Shown here: positions 2,236 to 63,723 of the stretch, piece after piece
Numbering within the stretch: position 1 is the first letter of the stretch
Layout of the letters: each line of letters begins with the position of its first letter
Assembly: GCA_022823235.1 (NCBI GenBank)
Contig: JAJDXO010000057.1
Coordinates: forward strand, 23,963 to 87,962
Source of the DNA: Rhodospirillales bacterium
Lineage (GTDB): Bacteria > Pseudomonadota > Alphaproteobacteria > Rhodospirillales > UBA2165
Reading direction: 5' to 3'
DNA: 64,000 nucleotides
The notes under the pieces: model-generated
Databases searched by the model: none
Told to the model about the DNA's origin: nothing
The model's input: the letters and a program-made list of their open reading frames with translations, nothing else
Made by a program: the position numbers and the translations under genes

Positions 2236-2739
2236 ATGTCCAATTGGTACGCCATCTTCACCCACGCCCGTGCCGAGCAAAAGGCGCTGTTCAATCTCGA
2301 GCGGCAGGGGTTTCAGTCGTTCTTTCCCAAATACCGCAAACGGCGGCGCCACGCCCGACGCGTCGAAACGGTCTCGGCTCCGCTTTTTCCGCGTTACGTT
2401 TTCGTTTGGCTGGATATCGACCGGCAGCCGTGGCGGTCGATCAATTCGACCTTGGGCGTTCACGGAATTGTTTGCCAGGGCGAGAAGCCCGCGCCGTTGC
2501 CGGAGGGAATTGTAGAGGAACTGATCTCCCGCCAGGACGAATCGGGCTGTGTCGGCCTAGGCGGCAACATGTCGATCGCCCGGGGGCGGCCCGTGGAGAT
2601 CACCGACGGTCCATTTGCCGACTGCGTCGCCATCGTCGACCGTTTGCTGGACGCGGACAGGCTGGTCGTACTGCTCGATCTCCTGGGGCGTCGGGTCAAG
2701 GTACAGGTTCAAGCCCGCGCGGTTATCGCCGCGGTTTGA
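2236..2739 (+). CDS. rfaH: RfaH/NusG-paralog transcription antitermination factor
   Basis: ATG at 2236 (MSNWYAIFT...); NGN-domain motifs NLERQGF, PLFPRYVF, WRSINSTLGV; C-terminal KOW (VEITDGPFAD...VLLDLLGR). The 1570 start in the ORF track is an upstream extension. Confidence 0.85.
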   Translation: MSNWYAIFTHARAEQKALFNLERQGFQSFFPKYRKRRRHARRVETVSAPLFPRYVFVWLDIDRQPWRSINSTLGVHGIVCQGEKPAPLPEGIVEELISRQDESGCVGLGGNMSIARGRPVEITDGPFADCVAIVDRLLDADRLVVLLDLLGRRVKVQVQARAVIAAV

Positions 2740-2754
2740 ACGTCACGCATCGGG

Positions 2755-2795
2755 CGCACTCCGGGTGAGCTTTTCACCCGGAGTGCGGTAGCGTG
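2755..2795 (+). promoter_or_regulatory. JUMPstart-like element: 14-bp perfect hairpin overlapping an ops pause site
   Basis: CGCACTCCGGGTGA (2755-2768) / TCACCCGGAGTGCG (2774-2787); GCGGTAGCGTG at 2785-2795 matches the ops consensus GGCGGTAGnnTG except for the first base; lies between rfaH and the first glycan gene. Confidence 0.8.
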
Positions 2796-2815
2796 GAAAA
2801 ATTCCCAGGCCAAAA

Positions 2816-3493
2816 ATGGATGCGGCGGTGAGTCAAAATCCCGATGTTTCGGTGATCATTCCGGTTCACAACCAGGAACGCTATGTACACCGATGTCTTC
2901 GTTCAATCCTCGACCAATCCCTCGACGCGGACGACTACGAGATTCTCGTCGTCGACGATGGAAGTACCGATCGAACCGCCCAGGCGCTTCAGATGTTCGA
3001 GGGGGACATCCGATTGATCCGACACCCGGAATGCCTGGGCCTGCCGGCGGCGCTAAATGCCGGAATACGGCATGCGCGCGGTCAGTTTGTCGTCCGGCTG
3101 GACGGCGACGACTACGTCCATCGGGAATATCTGAACGCGCTGATGCTGCATCTGCGGTTGAACCCCGGGATGGACGCCATCGCCTGCGACTACCTGACGG
3201 TGGATGACCACGAAAACGTACTCGGACACATTAACTGGCTGGATCGACCTATTGGATGCAGCATCATGTTCCGCTACGAACAGCTAATCGATATCGGCCT
3301 ATACGATGAAGATTTTCTGGCGCGGGAGGATGAAGACCTGAGGCTGAGGTTCATGGAGAAATACTCTATCGATCGGGTTGCCCTGCCGCTCTATCGTTAC
3401 CGCCGCCATGGTGGAAACATGACCAATGACGATGAGCAAATGGAAGCCTATTCCGAAGCACTGCTGAGGAAACACGGACGGGAGTCCCCATGA
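2816..3493 (+). CDS. Glycosyltransferase family 2
   Basis: VSVIIPVHN, VVDDGSTD, ALNAGI, RLDGDD, EDEDL motifs. Confidence 0.9.
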   Translation: MDAAVSQNPDVSVIIPVHNQERYVHRCLRSILDQSLDADDYEILVVDDGSTDRTAQALQMFEGDIRLIRHPECLGLPAALNAGIRHARGQFVVRLDGDDYVHREYLNALMLHLRLNPGMDAIACDYLTVDDHENVLGHINWLDRPIGCSIMFRYEQLIDIGLYDEDFLAREDEDLRLRFMEKYSIDRVALPLYRYRRHGGNMTNDDEQMEAYSEALLRKHGRESP

Positions 3494-4686
3494 CCATGGA
3501 CAAACCTTGGGCGGTGAAGTGGAGCGGCCGCGGTTCGCAATATACCGAGGAAGAAATCGACTATATCGTCGAAGCCATTCGCACGGCTGATCCGCTTACC
3601 CAAGGTCGGTATCTCGCCGACTTCGAGGAAAAATTCAAAGAATTTACCGGCGCAAGCCACGCTTTTGCGGTCGCCAACTGCACCTGCGCTCTGGAGCTCG
3701 CTGCAATTCTCTGCCGATTGACCTCGGACGATGAGGTTATTGTTCCGGCGCACACATTCGCGGCGACCGCGATACCCTTTGCACGGACCGGCGCAAAGAT
3801 TGTTTGGGCCGACATCGACCCGCGCACCCTGGTGGTCGATGCGGACGCAATTCAAAAATGCCTGAGCGCGCGAACCCGGGCGATCGTCGTCGTCCACCTT
3901 TACGGACTGGTCTGCGACATGGACCCCATTTTATCACTTGCCCGAGAACACGGCATACCTGTGATTGAGGATGCGGCGCAGGCGCTGGGGGCCACTTACA
4001 AGGGCACCCAGGCGGGAACAATGGGCGATTTCGGGTGCTATAGCTTTCAGACCCATAAGAACGTTTCAACGCTTGGCGAGGGCGGGGTTTTGTCGGTGCG
4101 GAGCCCCGATCTGGCGGCACTGGTGCCGGGCCTGCGCCACAACGGGATGCGCGCATACGAAGGTGACCGCCCGAACTACTGGCTTCCGGCGATGGGTGAT
4201 GTCGATTTCGACTGGGATGGCGTGTGGCCCTACAACTTCTGCATCGGCGAACCTCAGTGCGCCGCCGGCGTTCTTATGCTCGACCGGGTCGACGAGGTGA
4301 ATGCCCATCGCCGCGAAAAGGCGGAGAGATTTGAACGGGATCTCGGCGAGTATCCCGAACTGGTATTTCAAGCGACTCCACAGTACGGCGAATCGGCACG
4401 CTACTGTCTGCCCGCACGATATGACGGCACGAATACGAAAGGCAGCCGCAACGATTTCATGGACCGAATGGCCCACCATCACCGCGTAAACATGGTGGTT
4501 CAGTACCACCCGCTCTACCGCTATCCCATGTTTGAAAAGGCGGGTTTCGGTGACGCCGACTGCCCGCATACGGACTTTTTCTTCGACAATATGGTCTCGT
4601 TTCCATTCCACGAATGGATGCCCGCGAACGAGTACGAGTATCTCGTTTCCGCGGCCCAGGAAACCTGTGAGCACCTGCGTCGCTGA
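3490..4686 (+). CDS. DegT/DnrJ/EryC1/StrS PLP-dependent sugar aminotransferase
   Basis: DEVIVPAHTF, VVHLYG, EDAAQALGA, YSFQTHKNVSTLGEGG (catalytic Lys). Confidence 0.9.
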   Translation: MTMDKPWAVKWSGRGSQYTEEEIDYIVEAIRTADPLTQGRYLADFEEKFKEFTGASHAFAVANCTCALELAAILCRLTSDDEVIVPAHTFAATAIPFARTGAKIVWADIDPRTLVVDADAIQKCLSARTRAIVVVHLYGLVCDMDPILSLAREHGIPVIEDAAQALGATYKGTQAGTMGDFGCYSFQTHKNVSTLGEGGVLSVRSPDLAALVPGLRHNGMRAYEGDRPNYWLPAMGDVDFDWDGVWPYNFCIGEPQCAAGVLMLDRVDEVNAHRREKAERFERDLGEYPELVFQATPQYGESARYCLPARYDGTNTKGSRNDFMDRMAHHHRVNMVVQYHPLYRYPMFEKAGFGDADCPHTDFFFDNMVSFPFHEWMPANEYEYLVSAAQETCEHLRR

Positions 4687-8439: not shown

Positions 8440-10212
8440 TTGACCTCTCGCCGGATTTTTCTGACTGAACCTCCGCCGGATTTCGATTTTGATCGCGATT
8501 TGGTTGTCGGTCCCTGGTGCTTTGTCGGTGTCGAGGATCGGTTCCCCGGCTGGGACAAGCTGCCTTTCGAAGAGCCGATCCGCTCGCCGGCGGAGCTGAA
8601 ATCTGCGTGTAGCGACACCGAGCAACTCGCATTGCTGACCGCGGAGCGACTCGGCCGGGACATCGGCCCCGGTTCCGGCGGCGGCCATGGCGGGCGCTAT
8701 TGGAGATCGTTGCTTTATATGTGGCTGATGACGTGCGCGCAGTTGTTGTGGCGGCGTTACCTGTATGTTTCCGCCATGGTCGAACGTCACGGCAACGAGC
8801 CGTTCAGCGTATTCGTTCACCCGGACAGCGCATGGCCGAGCCTCGGCCTCGAGGAATTCTATGAACGGCTGGCACGGAGCCGGCCGTTTGACCATTGGGT
8901 GTCCTCGATCGTCGTGCGCGAACTTTGCCCCCCATCGTGGCAATTGATCGAAATTCGCGAAAAGCCCGAGCCAGGCCCGTCGATAGGCCGCCCGACGGCC
9001 GCCAGGAGCCGTCTGCGGAAACTTCTGGGGCGCCTTCCATTCAATCATGCTCATGGCATGCGCGGCTGGAAACTGCCTTTTTCCGTCATGCTGAGCCTCT
9101 TGCCGCGAAACCCCCATCCCCAGGACCAAACGGAAACCGGGACCATCGATCAAAATATAGAGGACAGGTTTCCCGACGCGTTTCTGCGGCTTTACGAGCG
9201 GTTTGTCGGCGCAACCCGGCCCGCATGCTACGGCGCCGATTTTTCCCGCTGGGATGCATCGGCATCACGACGGCGTTTTGCGCCCGGCCGCCTGTATGTC
9301 GACAATCTGGGCAGCCATCTCACGGAAAACAACTTCCTCGCGGCAACCGCGCTTGCGCGGGGAGAGCGGGTCGTCGGCGCGCAACATGGGGGACTCTACG
9401 GCACGGCCGCCGCAATGCCTGTGGCCGCTCATGCCGAATATGCCGGGCATGCGTTCCTGACCTGGGGCTGGAGAGAACAAGAGGACGCGGCGGGAAGGTT
9501 CGTCCCTGTTCCCTCGCCCCATCTGAGCCGGATCAGAAATGCCCACAGGCGCGGAAACCGGAAACTGATTTTCATCGGCACGCACATGGGAGTTTATGGT
9601 CACCGCTTCGACTCGATCCCAAGCCCCTCCCGGTGCCCGGCCTACCGGGGGATGAAGAGAGAGTTTGTCGGGGGGCTGAACGGCGCCATCCGGGAACAGC
9701 TTGCCTACCGTCCGTACGAAAAAGTCGGAACGTTATCGGACGCACCCTACCTTCGGCGGTCTTTTCCCGACCTGGAGGTTCTGGAAGGCCCGTTGGTTCC
9801 GGAAATGCTGCGCTGCAAGCTGGCCGTTTTCGACCACCCCGGCACCGCATTCCTGGAAGCTCTCGCCGCGAACGTTCCGACGATCGCCTACTGGAATCCG
9901 GACGATTGGCCGATGAGCCGTCAGGCCGCCCCCTACCTCGATGCGTTGGCCGAGTGCGGCCTCCTCCACCACGATGCCCCATCCGCCGCCGCCAAGGTGA
10001 ATGAGATTTGGGCCGACGTCGAGGGATGGTGGCGCAGCGAGGCGGTTCAGTCCGCGCGCCGGGCCTGGTGTCATCAGTACGCCCGCACCGCGACGCTGTG
10101 GCAATGGCATTGGGCCAAGGCGCTCTGGCAGCTTGCGCGCGGACAGGGCATTGCCGCGCCAATTCCGGACGCCATTCCGGGCGGCGATATCAGGGGAAGC
10201 AACATCGCATGA
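8440..10212 (+). CDS. LIC12162-like putative transferase (surface carbohydrate biosynthesis)
   Basis: VGPWC, QHGGLYG, LTWGW, YRPY, TAFLEALAANVPTIAYW, WADVEGWW pattern; TTG start chosen downstream of the REP-like element. Confidence 0.7.
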   Translation: MTSRRIFLTEPPPDFDFDRDLVVGPWCFVGVEDRFPGWDKLPFEEPIRSPAELKSACSDTEQLALLTAERLGRDIGPGSGGGHGGRYWRSLLYMWLMTCAQLLWRRYLYVSAMVERHGNEPFSVFVHPDSAWPSLGLEEFYERLARSRPFDHWVSSIVVRELCPPSWQLIEIREKPEPGPSIGRPTAARSRLRKLLGRLPFNHAHGMRGWKLPFSVMLSLLPRNPHPQDQTETGTIDQNIEDRFPDAFLRLYERFVGATRPACYGADFSRWDASASRRRFAPGRLYVDNLGSHLTENNFLAATALARGERVVGAQHGGLYGTAAAMPVAAHAEYAGHAFLTWGWREQEDAAGRFVPVPSPHLSRIRNAHRRGNRKLIFIGTHMGVYGHRFDSIPSPSRCPAYRGMKREFVGGLNGAIREQLAYRPYEKVGTLSDAPYLRRSFPDLEVLEGPLVPEMLRCKLAVFDHPGTAFLEALAANVPTIAYWNPDDWPMSRQAAPYLDALAECGLLHHDAPSAAAKVNEIWADVEGWWRSEAVQSARRAWCHQYARTATLWQWHWAKALWQLARGQGIAAPIPDAIPGGDIRGSNIA

Positions 10213-58074: not shown

Positions 58075-59232
58075 TTACACGGTCGCCCCGGTCCCGAAAA
58101 TGGCCGTGACCTGAGACGACAGCTTGCCGCCGTTGCCGTTGCAGAGCGCGATCTCGGCGCCGTCGATCTGGCGGCCCTCGGCCTCGCCCCTCAGCTGCTC
58201 GACCGCTTCGGCGACGGTGAACAGGCCGTACATGCCCGGATGGACGCAGCTTAGTCCGCCGCCGTTCGTGTTGACCGGCAGGTGTCCGCCGGGCGCGATG
58301 GCGCCCGATTCCACCAGCGCGCCCCCCTCGCCCTTGGCGCAAAAGCCGAGATCCTCCAGAAACAGGATCGTGTTGATGGTGAAGGCGTCGTAGAACTCCA
58401 TCACGTCGATGTCGTCCCGAGAAATCCCGGCCATCCCGAACGCCCGGGGCGCCCCCTTGGCCACCGCGGTCACCGTGAGGTCCGGCATCTGCGCGATCTG
58501 GTCGTGGGTCACCCCCACGCCGATTCCCAGGAGATGGACCGGCGGCTTCGGGAAGTCCCCGGCCCTCTCGGACCGGACCATGACCACCGCCGCCCCGCCG
58601 TCCGAAACCAGACAGCAATCCAGCACGGTAAACGGATCGCAGATCATCCGGGCATTGGCCACGTCTTCGACGGTAATCGGCTCCCGCATCTCGGCGCGGG
58701 GGTTTTTCGCCGCCCACGCCCGGGCCGAGGTGGCGACCGAGGCCAGCTGTTCCCGCGTGGTGCCGAACTCGTGCATGTGGCGCGCCGCCGCCATGGCATA
58801 GGATCCGATGGGATTGCGGGGGCTATAGACGTCTTCGTAGGGCACCCGGCCCAACGGTCCCCTGGTCTGTCCGGCGCGCCCGCCCGACCGCGAGGTCGAG
58901 CCGTAGGCGATCAGCGCCACATTGCAAAGACCGGTCGCCAGCGCCATGGCCGCGGCCTGAACATGGCTGACGAATGTCGAGCCGCCGATATTGGTGCTGT
59001 CGAGAACCGCCGGGTCGATTCCCAGATATTCCGCCGCCTGGAGCGCCAGGAACGGGCTCGCGAAGTTGGAGACGAACAGCCCGTCCACATCCTTGACGGT
59101 CAGGCCGGCGTCCGAGAGCGCCCCGTGGGCCGCTTCCGCCATCACCTCCAGATGAGAGCGTTCGGGCAAGGTGCCGAACTCGGTGAGGCCAAGCCCGACG
59201 ATGGCCGCGGCGCCCCGCAGCATGTGCGCCAT
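58075..59232 (-). CDS. Thiolase (SCP-x/lipid-transfer type)
   Basis: DCCLVSDGG, YDAFT, LEDLGFC.KGEG, NTNGGGLS; starts at MAHMLRG (the ORF track extension to 60150 overlaps other genes). Confidence 0.88.
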   Translation of the reverse strand: MAHMLRGAAAIVGLGLTEFGTLPERSHLEVMAEAAHGALSDAGLTVKDVDGLFVSNFASPFLALQAAEYLGIDPAVLDSTNIGGSTFVSHVQAAAMALATGLCNVALIAYGSTSRSGGRAGQTRGPLGRVPYEDVYSPRNPIGSYAMAAARHMHEFGTTREQLASVATSARAWAAKNPRAEMREPITVEDVANARMICDPFTVLDCCLVSDGGAAVVMVRSERAGDFPKPPVHLLGIGVGVTHDQIAQMPDLTVTAVAKGAPRAFGMAGISRDDIDVMEFYDAFTINTILFLEDLGFCAKGEGGALVESGAIAPGGHLPVNTNGGGLSCVHPGMYGLFTVAEAVEQLRGEAEGRQIDGAEIALCNGNGGKLSSQVTAIFGTGATV

Positions 59233-59627
59233 CAGCCGGCCTCCGCCAACCGGAACAGGACGACCTTCTCCTCGTTCAGTTCGCCGATGAAGGCTTCCAC
59301 CGGCTGACCGATCCGGACCTCGTCGGGCGGCGTGTCCACGACCCGGCTGACGAGCCGCGGCCCTTCCTCCAGATCGACGAGACAGATGTTGTAATCGCCG
59401 CCCCTCTCCGGCCGCTGCCGGACGACGGTGGTCGAATAGACGGTGCCCCTGCCGGACGCCATCACCCAGCCGAGGTCCGTCGAGCCGCAGGCGGGGCAAA
59501 TCGCCCTGGGATAGAAGATGTGGGCCCCGCAGCCGCCGCACTTCTGGATTTGAAACGCGCCGTTCTCCAGCGCCGCCCGGTAAATGGCGTCGGGACCCGG
59601 GCTGTCGAAGGTCCGGTTGTCGCTCAT
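59232..59627 (-). CDS. Zn-ribbon/OB-fold protein (DUF35/ChsH2-like)
   Basis: CGGC...YPR..CPAC, SGRGTVYS, VDLEEGPR; coupled to the thiolase. Confidence 0.88.
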   Translation of the reverse strand: MSDNRTFDSPGPDAIYRAALENGAFQIQKCGGCGAHIFYPRAICPACGSTDLGWVMASGRGTVYSTTVVRQRPERGGDYNICLVDLEEGPRLVSRVVDTPPDEVRIGQPVEAFIGELNEEKVVLFRLAEAG

Positions 59628-59706
59628 ATTCGCCCCCCTTTTTGGCGGCCGGAGTTGACTCGACCGCCGGCCATGGCCAACTTTCTCCCGACAGGGTCCG
59701 AAAAAA

Positions 59707-60387
59707 ATGATCGATAAGCAATGCAAGAGTGCGGCGGAAGCCGTCGAGGGGATCGGGGACGGCGCCGTCATCCTGGTCGGCGGCTTCGGCCAGACGGGCG
59801 AGCCCATGGACCTCCTCGACGCCATCGCCGCCAGGGGTCTCAAGGACCTCACCATCGTCGCCAATGGCGGCGGGTCCGGCGAGCATGGCATCGGCAGGCT
59901 GCTGGCCGGCGGCTGCGTGCGGAAACTGGTGTGCTCGTTTCCACGGGTGCCGGGCTCCGTCGCCTTCGAGGAACTCTACGAGCAGCGGGCGATCGAGCTG
60001 GAGATCGTCCCCCAGGGCACCATCGCCGAACGGGTCCGGGCGGGCGGCGCGGGCATTCCCGCCTTCTACGTGCCGACCGGCGCCGGCACCGAACTCGCCG
60101 ACGGCAAGGAGCATCGCGAGTTTGAGGGCCGGACGTTCGTCATGGAACACGCGATCAAGGGCGACGTGGCGGTGATCAAGGCCGACCGCGCCGACCGCTG
60201 GGGAAATTTGACCTACAGGCTGTCAGCGCGGAATTTCAATCCGGTCATGGCCATGGGCGCCGGGCTGACCATCGCGCAGGTGGAGAAGTGCGTCCCCCTG
60301 GGCGAGATGGACCCGGAAACCATCGTCACGCCCAGCATCTTCGTCGACCGGGTGGTGGAAATTCCGGGCGGGGTGTCCAATGGCTGA
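59707..60387 (+). CDS. pcaI: 3-oxoacid CoA-transferase subunit A
   Basis: LVGGFG, CSFPR, PQGTIAER.RAGGAGIPAFY, DRWGNL, RNFNP. Confidence 0.85.
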   Translation: MIDKQCKSAAEAVEGIGDGAVILVGGFGQTGEPMDLLDAIAARGLKDLTIVANGGGSGEHGIGRLLAGGCVRKLVCSFPRVPGSVAFEELYEQRAIELEIVPQGTIAERVRAGGAGIPAFYVPTGAGTELADGKEHREFEGRTFVMEHAIKGDVAVIKADRADRWGNLTYRLSARNFNPVMAMGAGLTIAQVEKCVPLGEMDPETIVTPSIFVDRVVEIPGGVSNG

Positions 60388-61066
60388 CGGTTTGACGCGC
60401 AACCAGATGGCCTGGCGCCTCGGCCGGGATATCGCCGAGGGGTCGTACGTGAATTTGGGCGTCGGCATCCCGCTGCTGGTGCTCGATCATGCGCCGGGGG
60501 GCCGCGAGATCATCTTCCATTCGGAAAACGGCGTGCTCGGCATGAAGCCCAAGGACGAGACCGACGGCATATTGCCGGACGACCTCACCAATGCGGGCAA
60601 GCAGCCCGTATCGCTGGTGCCCGGTGCCGCCATGTTTCATCACGCCGACAGCTTCATCATGATCCGCGGCGGGCATGTGGATATCGCGGTTCTCGGCGCC
60701 TATCAGGTGGCCGAGAACGGCGACCTTGCCAACTGGCGGCTCCCCGGCTCCCCCACCGCGCCCGCCGTCGGCGGCGCGATGGACCTCGCCGCCGGGGCCA
60801 GGAACGTCTGGGCCATATGCGAGCACACCGGCAGGGACGGCGCGCCCAAGATCGTCCGCGAGTGCACGCTCCCCCTCACCGGGCCCGGGTCGGTGAACCG
60901 CATCTACACCGACCTCGCCATCATCGACGTCACCCCGGACGGCCTCGTGGTGCGGGAGAAAATCGAAACGCTGTCCCTGGAAGACCTACAGGCCCTGAGC
61001 GGCGCCCCGCTGACCCTGGCCAACGGCTGGCGGCCCCTGGAGGCGCCGGATTTGACGCCACACTAA
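60380..61066 (+). CDS. pcaJ: 3-oxoacid CoA-transferase subunit B
   Basis: VNLGVGIP, SENG (catalytic Glu), IRGGH, VGGAMDL, CTLPLTG. Confidence 0.85.
   Translation: MADGLTRNQMAWRLGRDIAEGSYVNLGVGIPLLVLDHAPGGREIIFHSENGVLGMKPKDETDGILPDDLTNAGKQPVSLVPGAAMFHHADSFIMIRGGHVDIAVLGAYQVAENGDLANWRLPGSPTAPAVGGAMDLAAGARNVWAICEHTGRDGAPKIVRECTLPLTGPGSVNRIYTDLAIIDVTPDGLVVREKIETLSLEDLQALSGAPLTLANGWRPLEAPDLTPH
61018..61047 (+). repeat. 30-bp perfect direct repeat, copy 1 (pcaJ 3' end)
   Basis: GGCCAACGGCTGGCGGCCCCTGGAGGCGCC, identical to 61673-61702. Confidence 0.95.
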
Positions 61067-61067
61067 G

Positions 61068-61535
61068 TCACTTCATCTTGCGGTAACCGGGAATCGCCGA
61101 AATTCCACCTTCGACGTTGACGTTTGTCCGGGCGCCGATGTTGAGGAACTGGCAGTTCAAAAATTCCTCCTCGGTTTCAAATAGTAGGTAACCATTGGGA
61201 TCGAATAAGGCACCCGGAAATCTCTTGAGATTGTTGTACCAGCATCCATCTCGATGGAAGAGTGACTGTCGCGCTCCGGCTCCCCACTCATCATTCAATT
61301 GAACACCAGAGTACATTCGGGTCCGCCGGTTGGAAATCGACCTTCCGTACCCGATTCTTGTGGTTTGGAGATGGGGGTTGATGGATGTCTCTTTCGATGT
61401 AGTTAATGGTGCCGTGACAACTTCATCCAAACCCAGTTCTCTCCGCAGAACAGAATTTGGAGAGTCTTCAAATGGTCGGGCCAATTTCTGAAGCTGAGAA
61501 TACACTTCATCATCAATTTCAATGTTATGCGTCAT
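61068..61535 (-). CDS. AT-rich hypothetical protein: SeqA-N/RHH-like N-terminus plus an unnamed C-terminal domain
   Basis: MTHNIEIDDEVYSQLQKLARPFEDSPNSVLRRELGL; C-terminal G.WY..L.RFPGALFDPNGY; visibly lower GC than the flanks. Confidence 0.75.
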   Translation of the reverse strand: MTHNIEIDDEVYSQLQKLARPFEDSPNSVLRRELGLDEVVTAPLTTSKETSINPHLQTTRIGYGRSISNRRTRMYSGVQLNDEWGAGARQSLFHRDGCWYNNLKRFPGALFDPNGYLLFETEEEFLNCQFLNIGARTNVNVEGGISAIPGYRKMK

Positions 61536-61558
61536 TGGAGCACCCCTACTACCGCCTC

Positions 61559-61639
61559 AGTAATTTACTACAGGCCTACGGGAACTTCAAGTAAATTACT
61601 ATATGGTCTAGTAAACGCCTTTCATAGAAGTAATTTACT
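61559..61639. promoter_or_regulatory. Three AGTAAWTTACT palindromic boxes
   Basis: Copies at 61559-61569, 61590-61600 and 61629-61639, directly upstream of the 61535 ATG. Confidence 0.7.
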
Positions 61640-61672
61640 GAAAACTCATAGGACATTTGAGATCACACGACC

Positions 61673-61702
61673 GGCCAACGGCTGGCGGCCCCTGGAGGCG
61701 CC
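61673..61702 (+). repeat. 30-bp perfect direct repeat, copy 2
   Basis: Identical to 61018-61047; continues ...GAC CTG TGA (ANGWRPLEAPDL*). Confidence 0.95.
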
Positions 61703-62005
61703 CGACCTGTGATGATCGACGCCAACGGGGAAATTTTCATCTGGATACCCCGGACCTGCGCCGGGTCGGTCAATTCGTCCGAATTGACCTTACATGACGG
61801 AATAGGGGGCTCCAACAACACCCGTCATGCCCCGCCCCACCGGACCGGCCTTCAGTCGGCCGAAGCCGACTTTCGGACGGCGTAGGCCGGCTTCGCCGAC
61901 CGGAGGACAAGCTCCGTGCGGGACATCACCGCAGGCCAAATGATCTCGGTTTTTCTCGACAATCGGTATGCTAGCATTGTGGTTACAAAACAGCGGCCTG
62001 ACGCG

Positions 62006-63616
62006 GTGTCTGATTACGATTACATCATTGTCGGGGCTGGTTCGGCGGGCTGCGTCCTCGCAAACCGGCTAAGCGAAGACCCCAAGACTCGTGTCCTGCT
62101 GCTGGAGGCGGGCGGCCCCGATCGTCATCCGCTCATTCCGGCGCCGCTGGCAATGCGGTTCGTCTCGCGCAATCCGAACCTGCTCTGGAATATCCGCACC
62201 GAACCCGAACCCTATTGCGACAACCGGGTGTTCGAGCCGCCCCGGGGCCGGGTGCTCGGCGGCACATCTTCGGTGAATGCGATGATCTATGCTCGCGGTC
62301 ATCCCGGCGATTATGACCAATGGCGTCAGTCGGGACTCGTGGGCTGGGGCTACGAAGACGTCCTGCCCTACTTCAAGAAATCCGAATGCCACTGGCAGGG
62401 TAGGAGCGAGTTTCACGGCGGTGATGGACCCCTTCGCGTGTCCCGGACCGGCGTGACCAATCCAATGCATGATCTGCTCAGCCGCTCGGCGGCGGCGGCG
62501 GGCGTTCCGCTGACCGAGGATTTTAATGGTGCCGAGCCCGAGGGGATTATGGTGCCGGATATGACGATCGCCGGCGGCAAGCGGTCTTCGACCGCGCGGA
62601 TGTTCCTTCGCCCGGCCTTACGGCGCAGGAATCTGACAATCGAAACCTGGGCGCGGGCGCACGGAGTGCTCATCGAGAACGGGCGAGCCGTCGGCGTCCG
62701 CTATGGGCGGAATGGCAGGATCGTGGATGTGGAGGCCGCCCGGGAAGTCGTGTTGGCCGGCGGTACATATATGTCGCCGCAGCTTCTGATGTTGTCGGGC
62801 ATCGGTCCCGCGGCGGAGCTGGACAAACATGGAATCGCTTGTGTTGCCGACCGGCCGGCCGTTGGGCAGGGCTTACAGGAACATGCCAATGCTTTCTTGG
62901 ATTTCCGGCTGTCCCGGCCCTTGTCCATGAACCGGCACTTACGCCTCGACCGGTTGGCCGGTTCCGTCGTTAGATGGCTGGCAAACGGCACCGGCCAGGT
63001 CGGTAACTTCCCGACCTCTTCGGTGGGTTTCCTTCGGGTTCATCCCGAGAGCGAGCGACCGGATGTAGAGATCATCGCCGTACCCATCTGGCAGGATGCC
63101 GATCCATGGTTTCCGGGCATCAAACGACCGGCGCCGGAACGCTACTCCATGCGGGTTTCACAAATGCATCCGAGAAGCCGGGGCAATGTGGGACTGCACT
63201 CCGCGGACCCTGAGGCACCGCCCAAGATCCAATGGAACCTGCTGCAGGACGAGTACGATCTCGTGACTTTGCGTGAAGGCCTGAAACTGGTGCGGCGCAT
63301 GTTCGCCGAGGAGCCGCTCCGAGGGGCGGTCGAGACCGAAGACAGCCCCGGCCGAGAAATATCCTCCGACGGCGAGATCGATTCCTGGCTGCGCGCCAAC
63401 TGCACGACGGCACAACATCCTGCGGGCACCTGCCGCATGGGCGCCGATAAGGATGCGGTCGTGGATAGCCGGCTTCGGGTGCGGGGGATCAGAGGGCTTC
63501 GAGTTGCCGATTGCTCCATCATGCCCTGGCTGGTGGGTGGAAACACCAACGCGCCGACCATCATGATTGCCGAGAAAGCGGTTGATCTATTGAGGCAAGG
63601 CGCCGATAGCGCCTAA
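62006..63616 (+). CDS. GMC oxidoreductase (choline dehydrogenase-like)
   Basis: [57 protein letters not shown]. Confidence 0.93.
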
Positions 63617-63723
63617 ATGCCCGGAGGGACAACTTCCGAGCTGGAAATCGGGCCTCACCCGGATATGTGAGGTAGCCCCAACATCGGCTATGGTTATTTC
63701 CATGAAACCTGGAGCAAGCAGCT

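Follow-up and report, generated by a model that had tools for sequence, protein, structure and literature searches.

A polymorphic one-gene insert between att-like repeats at the 3' end of pcaJ in a Rhodospirillales bacterium

Introduction

How does a single, apparently foreign gene come to lie in the very end of a housekeeping gene with no recombinase gene beside it? The question is raised by a 64,000-nucleotide (nt) stretch of a Rhodospirillales genome (GCA_022823235.1, contig JAJDXO010000057.1, positions 23,963 to 87,962), which we call the window. Here pcaJ, the gene for subunit B of a 3-oxoadipate/3-oxoacid CoA-transferase, is followed by an AT-rich insert with one gene, P0001, and the insert lies between two direct repeats of the pcaJ end. 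An earlier note, made from the sequence alone, took it for a minimal non-autonomous element, or a reduced remnant, mobilised in trans. We followed this up by comparison with related genomes, public metagenomes and homologous loci. The insertion is real, recent and polymorphic. The chances are about even that it is an inherently minimal cassette, flanked by attachment (att) sites and integrated by a recombinase supplied in trans.

Results

An AT-rich insert supplies a new end to pcaJ

A repeat search returned a sole repeat family, a direct pair of 33 nt with one mismatch and a start-to-start spacing of 655, and the leading 30 nt of the two copies are identical. The earlier note had described identical 30-bp repeats around an AT-rich segment of ~625 bp with a single minus-strand gene, and had placed the whole at 61018-61712. 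All of these features were found; the coordinates are correct, and the segment measures 622 bp (Table 1). It had also proposed searching the genome for the 30-mer. With up to 3 mismatches allowed, this gave just two sites in the 3.78-Mb, 60-contig genome, both of them the repeats that flank the insert (reversed control, 0). The 622-bp insert itself is single copy in the genome. Its GC content is 0.435-0.51 (61100-61699, in 200-nt steps), versus 0.625-0.745 at 59000-60999, across pcaIJ.

The insert consists of one intact open reading frame (155 amino acids [aa], minus strand), and no gene fragments or deletion scar are visible. Its ends are tight. There are 17 nt between the cargo stop codon and the repeat and 137 nt on the promoter side, and a single nt separates the stop codons of pcaJ and P0001, which are on opposite strands.

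PcaJ scores 262.5 bits against TIGR02428 (cut-off, 243.55). The last 16 nt of its gene, including the stop codon (T TTG ACG CCA CAC TAA), come from the insert, and the protein ends in LEAPDLTPH. The downstream repeat copy preserves the native APDL end, and close PcaJ homologues are 225 aa long and end in APDL. Both tails had been described in the earlier note, GAT TTG ACG CCA CAC TAA upstream and GAC CTG TGA downstream, and both were confirmed. Among the 33 listed of the 40 members of the PcaJ clusters at 90% identity or more, the TPH tail (228 aa) occurs only in the window protein and in P0236, which is 99% identical to it. P0231, also 99% identical, has 225 aa and no tail.

Empty sites in relatives and in sponge metagenomes

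The match to pcaJ in all six genomes of the same genus (93-97% identity) ends at window position 61050. No full-length copy of the cargo gene was found in the genomes of 40 relatives, these six included; one match was limited to the N-terminus. We read the site in four of the six congeners (G005, G001, G003, and G006). In each, a single copy of the repeat runs directly into the native CCG GAC CTG TGA or a slightly different version of it. In G005, G001, and G003 the GAC CTG TGA that is orphaned in the window is contiguous with pcaJ, and the bases after it are the same as those after the downstream repeat of the window.

We also compared contigs (Logan) from public sponge-metagenome runs with positions 60300-62300. 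Stretches of X2, X3, and X4 that leave the insert uncovered were not taken as evidence, and bridging contigs alone were used. A contig from X1 spans 60300-61786 with 0 differences; X1 may be the source sample, so this contig is not independent support. Contigs from X2 cover 60300-61139, across the upstream junction, with 4 differences, and 61316-61553 with 2 differences. In X3, 61048 is joined straight to 61704, so that 655 bp are skipped; this contig has 10 differences over 622 nt of pcaJ, and its joint retains the G at the base that differs between the repeats. In X4, 60981 is joined to 61673 with 36 replaced letters, and there is a G at 61703. Because the congeners, X3, and X4 have empty sites while X2 has an occupied junction, the insertion is real, recent and polymorphic. 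At least two samples contain it, and strains that are ~98-99% identical lack it. The empty site with a single repeat that the earlier note had proposed to look for thus exists in the four congeners read and in X3 and X4. The X1 contig, the upstream junction in X2, and the tail of P0236 speak against an assembly artefact.

Hybrid junctions and the recombinase question

Every empty site (four genomes, X3, and X4) reads CCG GAC CTG. The upstream junction (attL) reads CCG GAT TTG, and the downstream junction (attR) reads CCC GAC CTG. On these bases, attL reads as host sequence up to GA (61049-61050) and insert from there on, and attR as insert through the C at 61703 and host thereafter. Such reciprocal hybrids point to a crossover between the chromosomal site and a look-alike carried by the insert, located where the 30-bp identity ends on the right. 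Simple duplication of the target would yield two host copies; it is possible if a later mutation is assumed. The first codons of the insert also keep the pcaJ frame, as D-L. By our own estimate this would happen by chance with a probability of ~0.05 (1 in 20), so it is a weak argument.

The repeat search found no inverted repeats pairing the insert ends. Folding of both junctions and the 137-nt spacer was no better than that of shuffled sequences (z -0.7 to -1.85), and Rfam gave no match in the insert region. Therefore, the insert is neither a MITE-like transposon (miniature inverted-repeat transposable element) nor an integron cassette with an attC site. The length of the duplication also speaks against a transposon, since it is 33 nt here and 22-131 nt in the sister modules described below, not a short fixed length, and the repeat is pcaJ coding DNA, with no significant hairpin as an attC site would have. 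No integron integrase was found in the genome, which is 98.8% complete and not closed; the best of its four tyrosine recombinases scores 118.6 bits, versus the IntI cut-off of 265. Integration of the XerCD/dif type was considered and, in view of the dif sequence, provisionally set aside.

Domain scans of the one open reading frame in the insert found no recombinase or relaxase domain. The genome encodes XerC, XerD, two phage-type integrases, and two large serine recombinases. The matches to PF00589 and PF00239 are all on six other contigs, with none on C20, the contig of the window. The profiles of the tyrosine and serine families thus bear out, for the whole contig, the earlier statement that there is no recombinase in the window.

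Two direct 14-mers, ATTTGANNNCACAC (61050-61063 and 61655-61668; 11/14 identical), would flank the 30-bp core in the inferred circle. By a rough estimate such a pair has a ~4% probability of arising by chance, and it has no equivalent in the other five modules.

The same arrangement around homologous genes elsewhere

We screened full-length relatives of P0001 for direct repeats with one copy on either side of the gene. In genome contigs, repeats were found at 4/36 loci. With a 700-nt flank, the count was 4 of 34 real loci versus 1 of 120 displaced control positions, and the lone control match lies inside an integron array. Of 70 loci screened in metagenome contigs, 58 had enough flank, and eight repeats had an E value of 0.01 or less. 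The modules accepted from metagenomes were L109, L113, L154, and L161 (L162 is the same sequence in another assembly). Repeats at L146 (15 nt), L163 (14 nt), L033, L038, and L060 (13 nt each), and L063 (18 nt, 2.8 kb apart) were rejected as chance. The repeat at L138 (21 nt, E 1e-4) was counted neither as a module nor as chance.

The modules other than integron cassettes, six with that of the window, share a layout. The family gene always converges on the target. A partial copy of the target lies 82-159 nt before the start codon, and the full target ends 17-30 nt past the stop codon unless extra genes intervene. Their repeats are 22, 33, 43, 53, at least 71, and 131 bp long, and all six pairs are imperfect. 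The L161 module also holds a RelB antitoxin/YafQ toxin pair. The homologues of P0001 in tight modules come from other phyla. This recurrence of a tight architecture around homologous genes supports the cassette reading. Carriage by phages amounted to 1 marginal partial match in 2.9 million viral contigs, and no plasmid record matched at 80% coverage or more (5 partial matches).

We extended L032 within its genome (G042:C2:184000-203900, called L193). Here a 314-aa tyrosine integrase (PF00589, E 2.9e-31) adjoins the complete tRNA-Met gene and is followed by a 7.2-kb element with a gene for an Mrr-type nuclease. Beyond this, four partial tRNA-Met copies (at 10201, 9076, 7771, and 5364) bound three small modules without recombinase genes. 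The cargos of these modules are two methyltransferases, a DUF1214/DUF1254 pair, and a P0001-like gene with a 103-aa open reading frame. The layout resembles an integron cassette array with tRNA halves as boundaries. L193 is a structural precedent for an enzyme supplied by a neighbouring element. The window has no such integrase neighbour, and host DNA follows the downstream repeat.

Table 1. Coordinates and layout of the features discussed (window positions unless a locus is named)
Feature	Position	Strand	Remarks
pcaJ, 3-oxoadipate/3-oxoacid CoA-transferase subunit B	60380-61066	+	228 aa; TIGR02428, PF01144
Upstream repeat, attL-like	61018-61050		host pcaJ sequence to ~61050; G at 61048 as in all empty-site alleles
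Insert proper	61051-61672		622 bp; low GC; not in relatives
Replacement tail of pcaJ, insert-encoded	61051-61066	+	completes D, then L-T-P-H-stop
Cargo gene P0001	61068-61535	-	155 aa; N-domain ~2-36, low-confidence variable linker, C-domain ~72-155
Cargo regulatory region	61536-61672	-	137 bp; three palindromes and a promoter-like site
Downstream repeat, attR-like	61673-61705		C at 61703, against G in all empty sites
Orphaned native pcaJ end, GAC CTG TGA	61704-61712	+	followed by host intergenic DNA
L029, L109, L113			integron cassettes; GCCTAAC...GTTAGGC attC sites, spacing 580-599 bp (L029, 599; L113, 580)
L049			between tRNA-Met gene and 22-nt copy of its 3' end; spacing 655 bp, as in the window
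L032			between 53-nt copies of the tRNA-Met 3' half
L035			43-nt repeats with 4 mismatches; no target assigned
L154			3' end of enolase-superfamily gene; repeat at least 71 nt; last seven codons insert-supplied
L161 (= L162)	2288-3780		3' end of beta-lactamase-family gene; 1362-bp module, 131-nt repeats
Complete tRNA-Met in L193	17456-17530	-	

The cargo gene and its control region

The P0001 gene is probably of foreign origin, judging from the GC content of the insert, the lack of a full-length copy in relatives, and the 53-58% identity of its best matches. Its two differences in X2 (61413 and 61425) are at third codon positions and, by hand translation, synonymous, so the gene looks live.

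The palindrome AGTAAWTTACT occurs exactly at 61559-61569, 61590-61600, and 61629-61639 and nowhere else in the window (0.05 expected). These copies bracket and overlap a promoter-like site, with a -35 element at 61625-61620 and a -10 element at 61603-61598; one such site is about what chance would give (0.6 in shuffled sequences). P0001 is probably a DNA binder, active as a dimer or oligomer, that would repress its own promoter via the three palindromes.

Homologous loci have operator-like boxes of another kind. Among 100 family loci (L026-L183), 30 have two or more exact TGTNACA boxes within 100 nt upstream of the start codon, with 0 in downstream controls, and many further loci have one exact and one degenerate box. 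In much of the family, a tandem TGTNACA-N-TGTNACA comes after a TTGACA-like hexamer and before the ribosome-binding site. The palindrome in the window differs from the family box; L069 has a similar one, AGTAATTAACT. Members of the Xanthomonadales type (L109, L111, L113, L124, L029, and L033) have the string gcgtagaaca in common upstream of the operator, and this lineage seems to reside in chromosomal integron arrays.

The cargo protein

A word-indexed search with P0001 found 102 relatives with an E value of 0.001 or less, nearly all metagenomic. A profile search with the family reached 1845 cluster representatives at E values of 0.001 or less, 656 at 1e-10 or less, and 57 at 1e-30 or less.

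With the family profile, the N-terminal 35-44 residues align with the N-domain of SeqA (1xrx, E 8.9e-4; 3fmt, E 1.7e-3), and a VIA structure comparison gave Z 3.0 over 35 residues. Ribbon-helix-helix (RHH) antitoxin folds also match the N-terminus, lower in the list. SeqA has a small N-domain, a linker, and a DNA-binding C-domain, and the layout of P0001 matches this. However, P0001 is not SeqA. It scores 13.2 bits against SeqA_N (cut-off, 23) and does not match PF03925.

The C-domain of ~80 aa is modelled at pLDDT (predicted local distance difference test) values of 81-96 and belongs to no Pfam family. It is found either by itself or as the N-terminal part of longer proteins. We scanned 28 of the longer proteins; 21 have HNH or HNH_2, 2 have NOV_C, and 5 have nothing. 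Eight further proteins with other arrangements of the C-domain had no family above the cut-off. A search of the PDB by Foldseek with P0001 found nothing at an E value of 0.001 or less. In VIA-align wide the top Z was 3.7, to I-Ssp6803I, followed by NhoI, MepB, PvuII, and Eco15I-N. The structure matches of the predicted model are consistently restriction-endonuclease-like, yet too weak for naming a fold. The invariant residues of the family (D112, G115, F119, and others) form no PD-(D/E)XK site, which argues against a nuclease. An McrA-like HNH restriction enzyme was also rejected, since P0001 has no HNH match and shares the C-domain alone with such proteins. From these domain combinations, the C-domain might be a DNA "reader" module taken from McrA-like HNH enzymes, free of the nuclease.

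Names given to the family elsewhere are few. Its JGI labels are "McrA" (four) and "CopG antitoxin" (one). The NCBIfam name "T4SS effector SepA family" was discarded, as the match covers residues 3-35 only and scores 21.7 bits, with a cut-off of 110. P0001 matched no family in the defence library PADLOC and none in PHROGs. The best score in an ESM Atlas search was 0.83, to unnamed clusters. As to its role in the cell, defence-related modulation or regulation would be our guess.

Neighbouring DNA

The intergenic DNA 3' of the downstream repeat (61725-61920) contains short units like repetitive extragenic palindromes (REP), at ~61739-61803 and ~61840-61895. This DNA has 52 matches in the genome and many in congeners, and contig depth in the metagenome runs is up to 30-fold higher there. 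The next gene, for a GMC oxidoreductase (61916-63616), varies in position among relatives. In G001, pcaJ is followed by ~100 nt of REP-like DNA and then by a match to 63673-63700, and a 97%-identical GMC gene lies ~545 kb away. The gene is on other contigs in G002 and G004, and no close copy was found in G005.

Discussion

If the insert is a cassette moved in trans, its free form would be a circle of ~655 bp made of one autoregulated gene and one attachment site, the latter copying ~33 bp of the 3' end of the pcaJ of this lineage. A recombinase that the cassette does not encode would cross this site with the chromosomal pcaJ end, exchanging strands at or beside GA (61049-61050/61704-61705). 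The outcome would be the hybrid attL and attR, a pcaJ restored with a tail three residues longer, and native last codons orphaned downstream. The recombination mechanism, the trans-acting enzyme, and the competence for excision are the parts of this scheme that we infer.

Several points weigh against it. None of the recombinases of the genome is linked to the pcaJ site. No circular or excised form was seen among the contigs (X1 has no such joint), which cannot show rare forms. The 30-bp identity lies wholly on one side of the crossover, which is seldom the case with large serine recombinases and atypical of the symmetric core of tyrosine recombinases. Arm-type repeats between the inferred attP arms were not found in any of the six modules (criterion: at least 10 matching positions in a 12-mer, in direct or inverted orientation). 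The hybrid pattern amounts to one polymorphic base plus the tail, and one subsequent base change in attR could be enough to imitate it. In the wider family, no flanking repeat lies within 700-1500 bp at 30 of 34 genome loci and at ~52 of the 58 eligible metagenome loci. Finally, the att sequences of different modules are unrelated, and therefore the modules cannot share one recombinase.

The known systems offer partial parallels. e14 and phage 21 integrate in the 3' end of icd and carry a substitute end. Such phages and islands likewise duplicate the end of the target and restore the gene with codons of their own, and their repeats range from tens to more than 100 bp. They encode an integrase, however, whereas the pcaJ module does not and is 10-100 times smaller. 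Integron cassettes also pair one gene with one recombination site in ~0.6 kb with very tight ends, and they include homologues of P0001. In contrast, the pcaJ module has no attC site and no IntI in the genome, and it brings its own promoter. Closest in operation are the cis-mobilizable elements (CIMEs), which are kilobases long. Those of streptococcal integrative and conjugative or integrative and mobilizable elements (ICEs and IMEs) likewise lie at the 3' end of a target gene between attL and attR, have no genes for integration or transfer, and depend on the recombinase of another element (PMC5704250). They can stand in tandem with an integrase-bearing element, as the L193 array does. The attL and attR of the pcaJ module, too, would have been made by a site-specific recombinase, as the definition of a CIME needs. 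Unlike CIMEs, the module is 622 bp long, holds one gene, has no scar, and stands alone, with no cognate ICE or IME known. It thus resembles a CIME in its working and an integron cassette in its packaging; an origin by CIME-type decay is a possibility.

Such decay, which would make the insert a CIME in the strict sense, is unlikely, though it deserves a hearing. A larger, integrase-bearing element would have entered pcaJ, and an internal deletion would have left attL, attR, and one gene. This would account for the missing integrase. CIMEs are defined as decay products of ICEs or IMEs (PMC5704250), and a preprint describes tycheposons, in which tRNA islands grow by accretion and arrays contain degenerate elements and partial tRNA copies. 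At L193, too, the modules without an integrase are distal to an intact integrase element. However, both ends are tight here and in five other independent modules, which random deletions should not repeat. The insert is a single intact open reading frame with no visible gene fragment or scar, and no larger version occurs in X2 or among the 33 listed members of the pcaJ clusters.

We regard it as rather improbable that no dedicated site-specific recombinase was involved, and that either a small circle with ~33 bp of pcaJ went in through Campbell-type recombination that depends on RecA, or foreign DNA was taken up at a staggered break whose filling-in made a long target duplication. The wide range of repeat lengths among modules (22-131 bp), the lack of a recombinase linked to the pcaJ site, and a repeat that is exactly host sequence over 30 bp would all fit. 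On the other hand, 30 bp is about the lower limit for RecA-dependent exchange. All six non-integron modules have at least one repeat mismatch, even this very recent one. In the pcaJ module the deviating base belongs to the side of the insert, with all empty sites agreeing with attL. The continuation of the frame as D-L argues weakly in the same direction, and the L193 array has an integrase beside it.

A bolder version of the cassette reading, which we hold to be doubtful, is that the modules belong together as minimal "att-cassettes", a class so far unrecognised. Each would consist of one autoregulated gene and one attachment site copied from the 3' end of a host gene or tRNA, would be small from birth as integron cassettes are, and could be exchanged between attC, tRNA-Met, and protein-gene-end platforms. 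The RHH/SeqA_N-like protein would then aid its own movement, perhaps by acting as a directionality or architectural factor and bringing a resident recombinase to the cassette.

That the insert is ancestral and was lost from relatives by recombination between the repeats is very improbable. Such a deletion would leave exactly one copy, as seen, but it would have to have occurred in all six congeners and in the X3 and X4 strains. It would often leave the insert tail behind, yet all empty sites have the GC-rich native tail and the G, and the TPH tail is in just 2 of the 33 listed close PcaJ proteins. The foreign composition of the insert also argues against it. A chimera in the assembly can practically be dismissed: the genome was assembled from a metagenome in 60 contigs and X1 may be its source, but the upstream junction recurs in X2 with differences of its own, P0236 is a second protein record, and a frame-restoring tail with precise repeats is unlike a chimera.

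A limited literature search found no description of the P0001 family or of one-gene att-flanked modules, which is weak evidence of absence. P0001 differs from both of the protein groups that it recalls, having no C-domain as in SeqA and no nuclease domain as in McrA-like enzymes. As a nuclease-free version of an McrA-type recognition module, P0001 may turn out to be a new factor in restriction or anti-restriction biology.

Gene gain is usually traced to elements that carry a recombinase; here a gene of foreign composition brought just an attachment site. This single gene went into the 3' end of a catabolic housekeeping gene, exact to the base pair, left that gene restored, and segregates among strains that are ~99% identical. 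The locus is a clean case at the population level, and the pattern to which it belongs crosses phyla. Recurrence at unrelated sites in several phyla, and in integron cassettes too, suggests that one-gene cassettes without recombinases circulate outside integrons, by way of any matching integrase platform. Should this be confirmed, they would give a way to study how cassettes form, and they would be an overlooked source of strain-level variation in gene content in symbiont and environmental populations.

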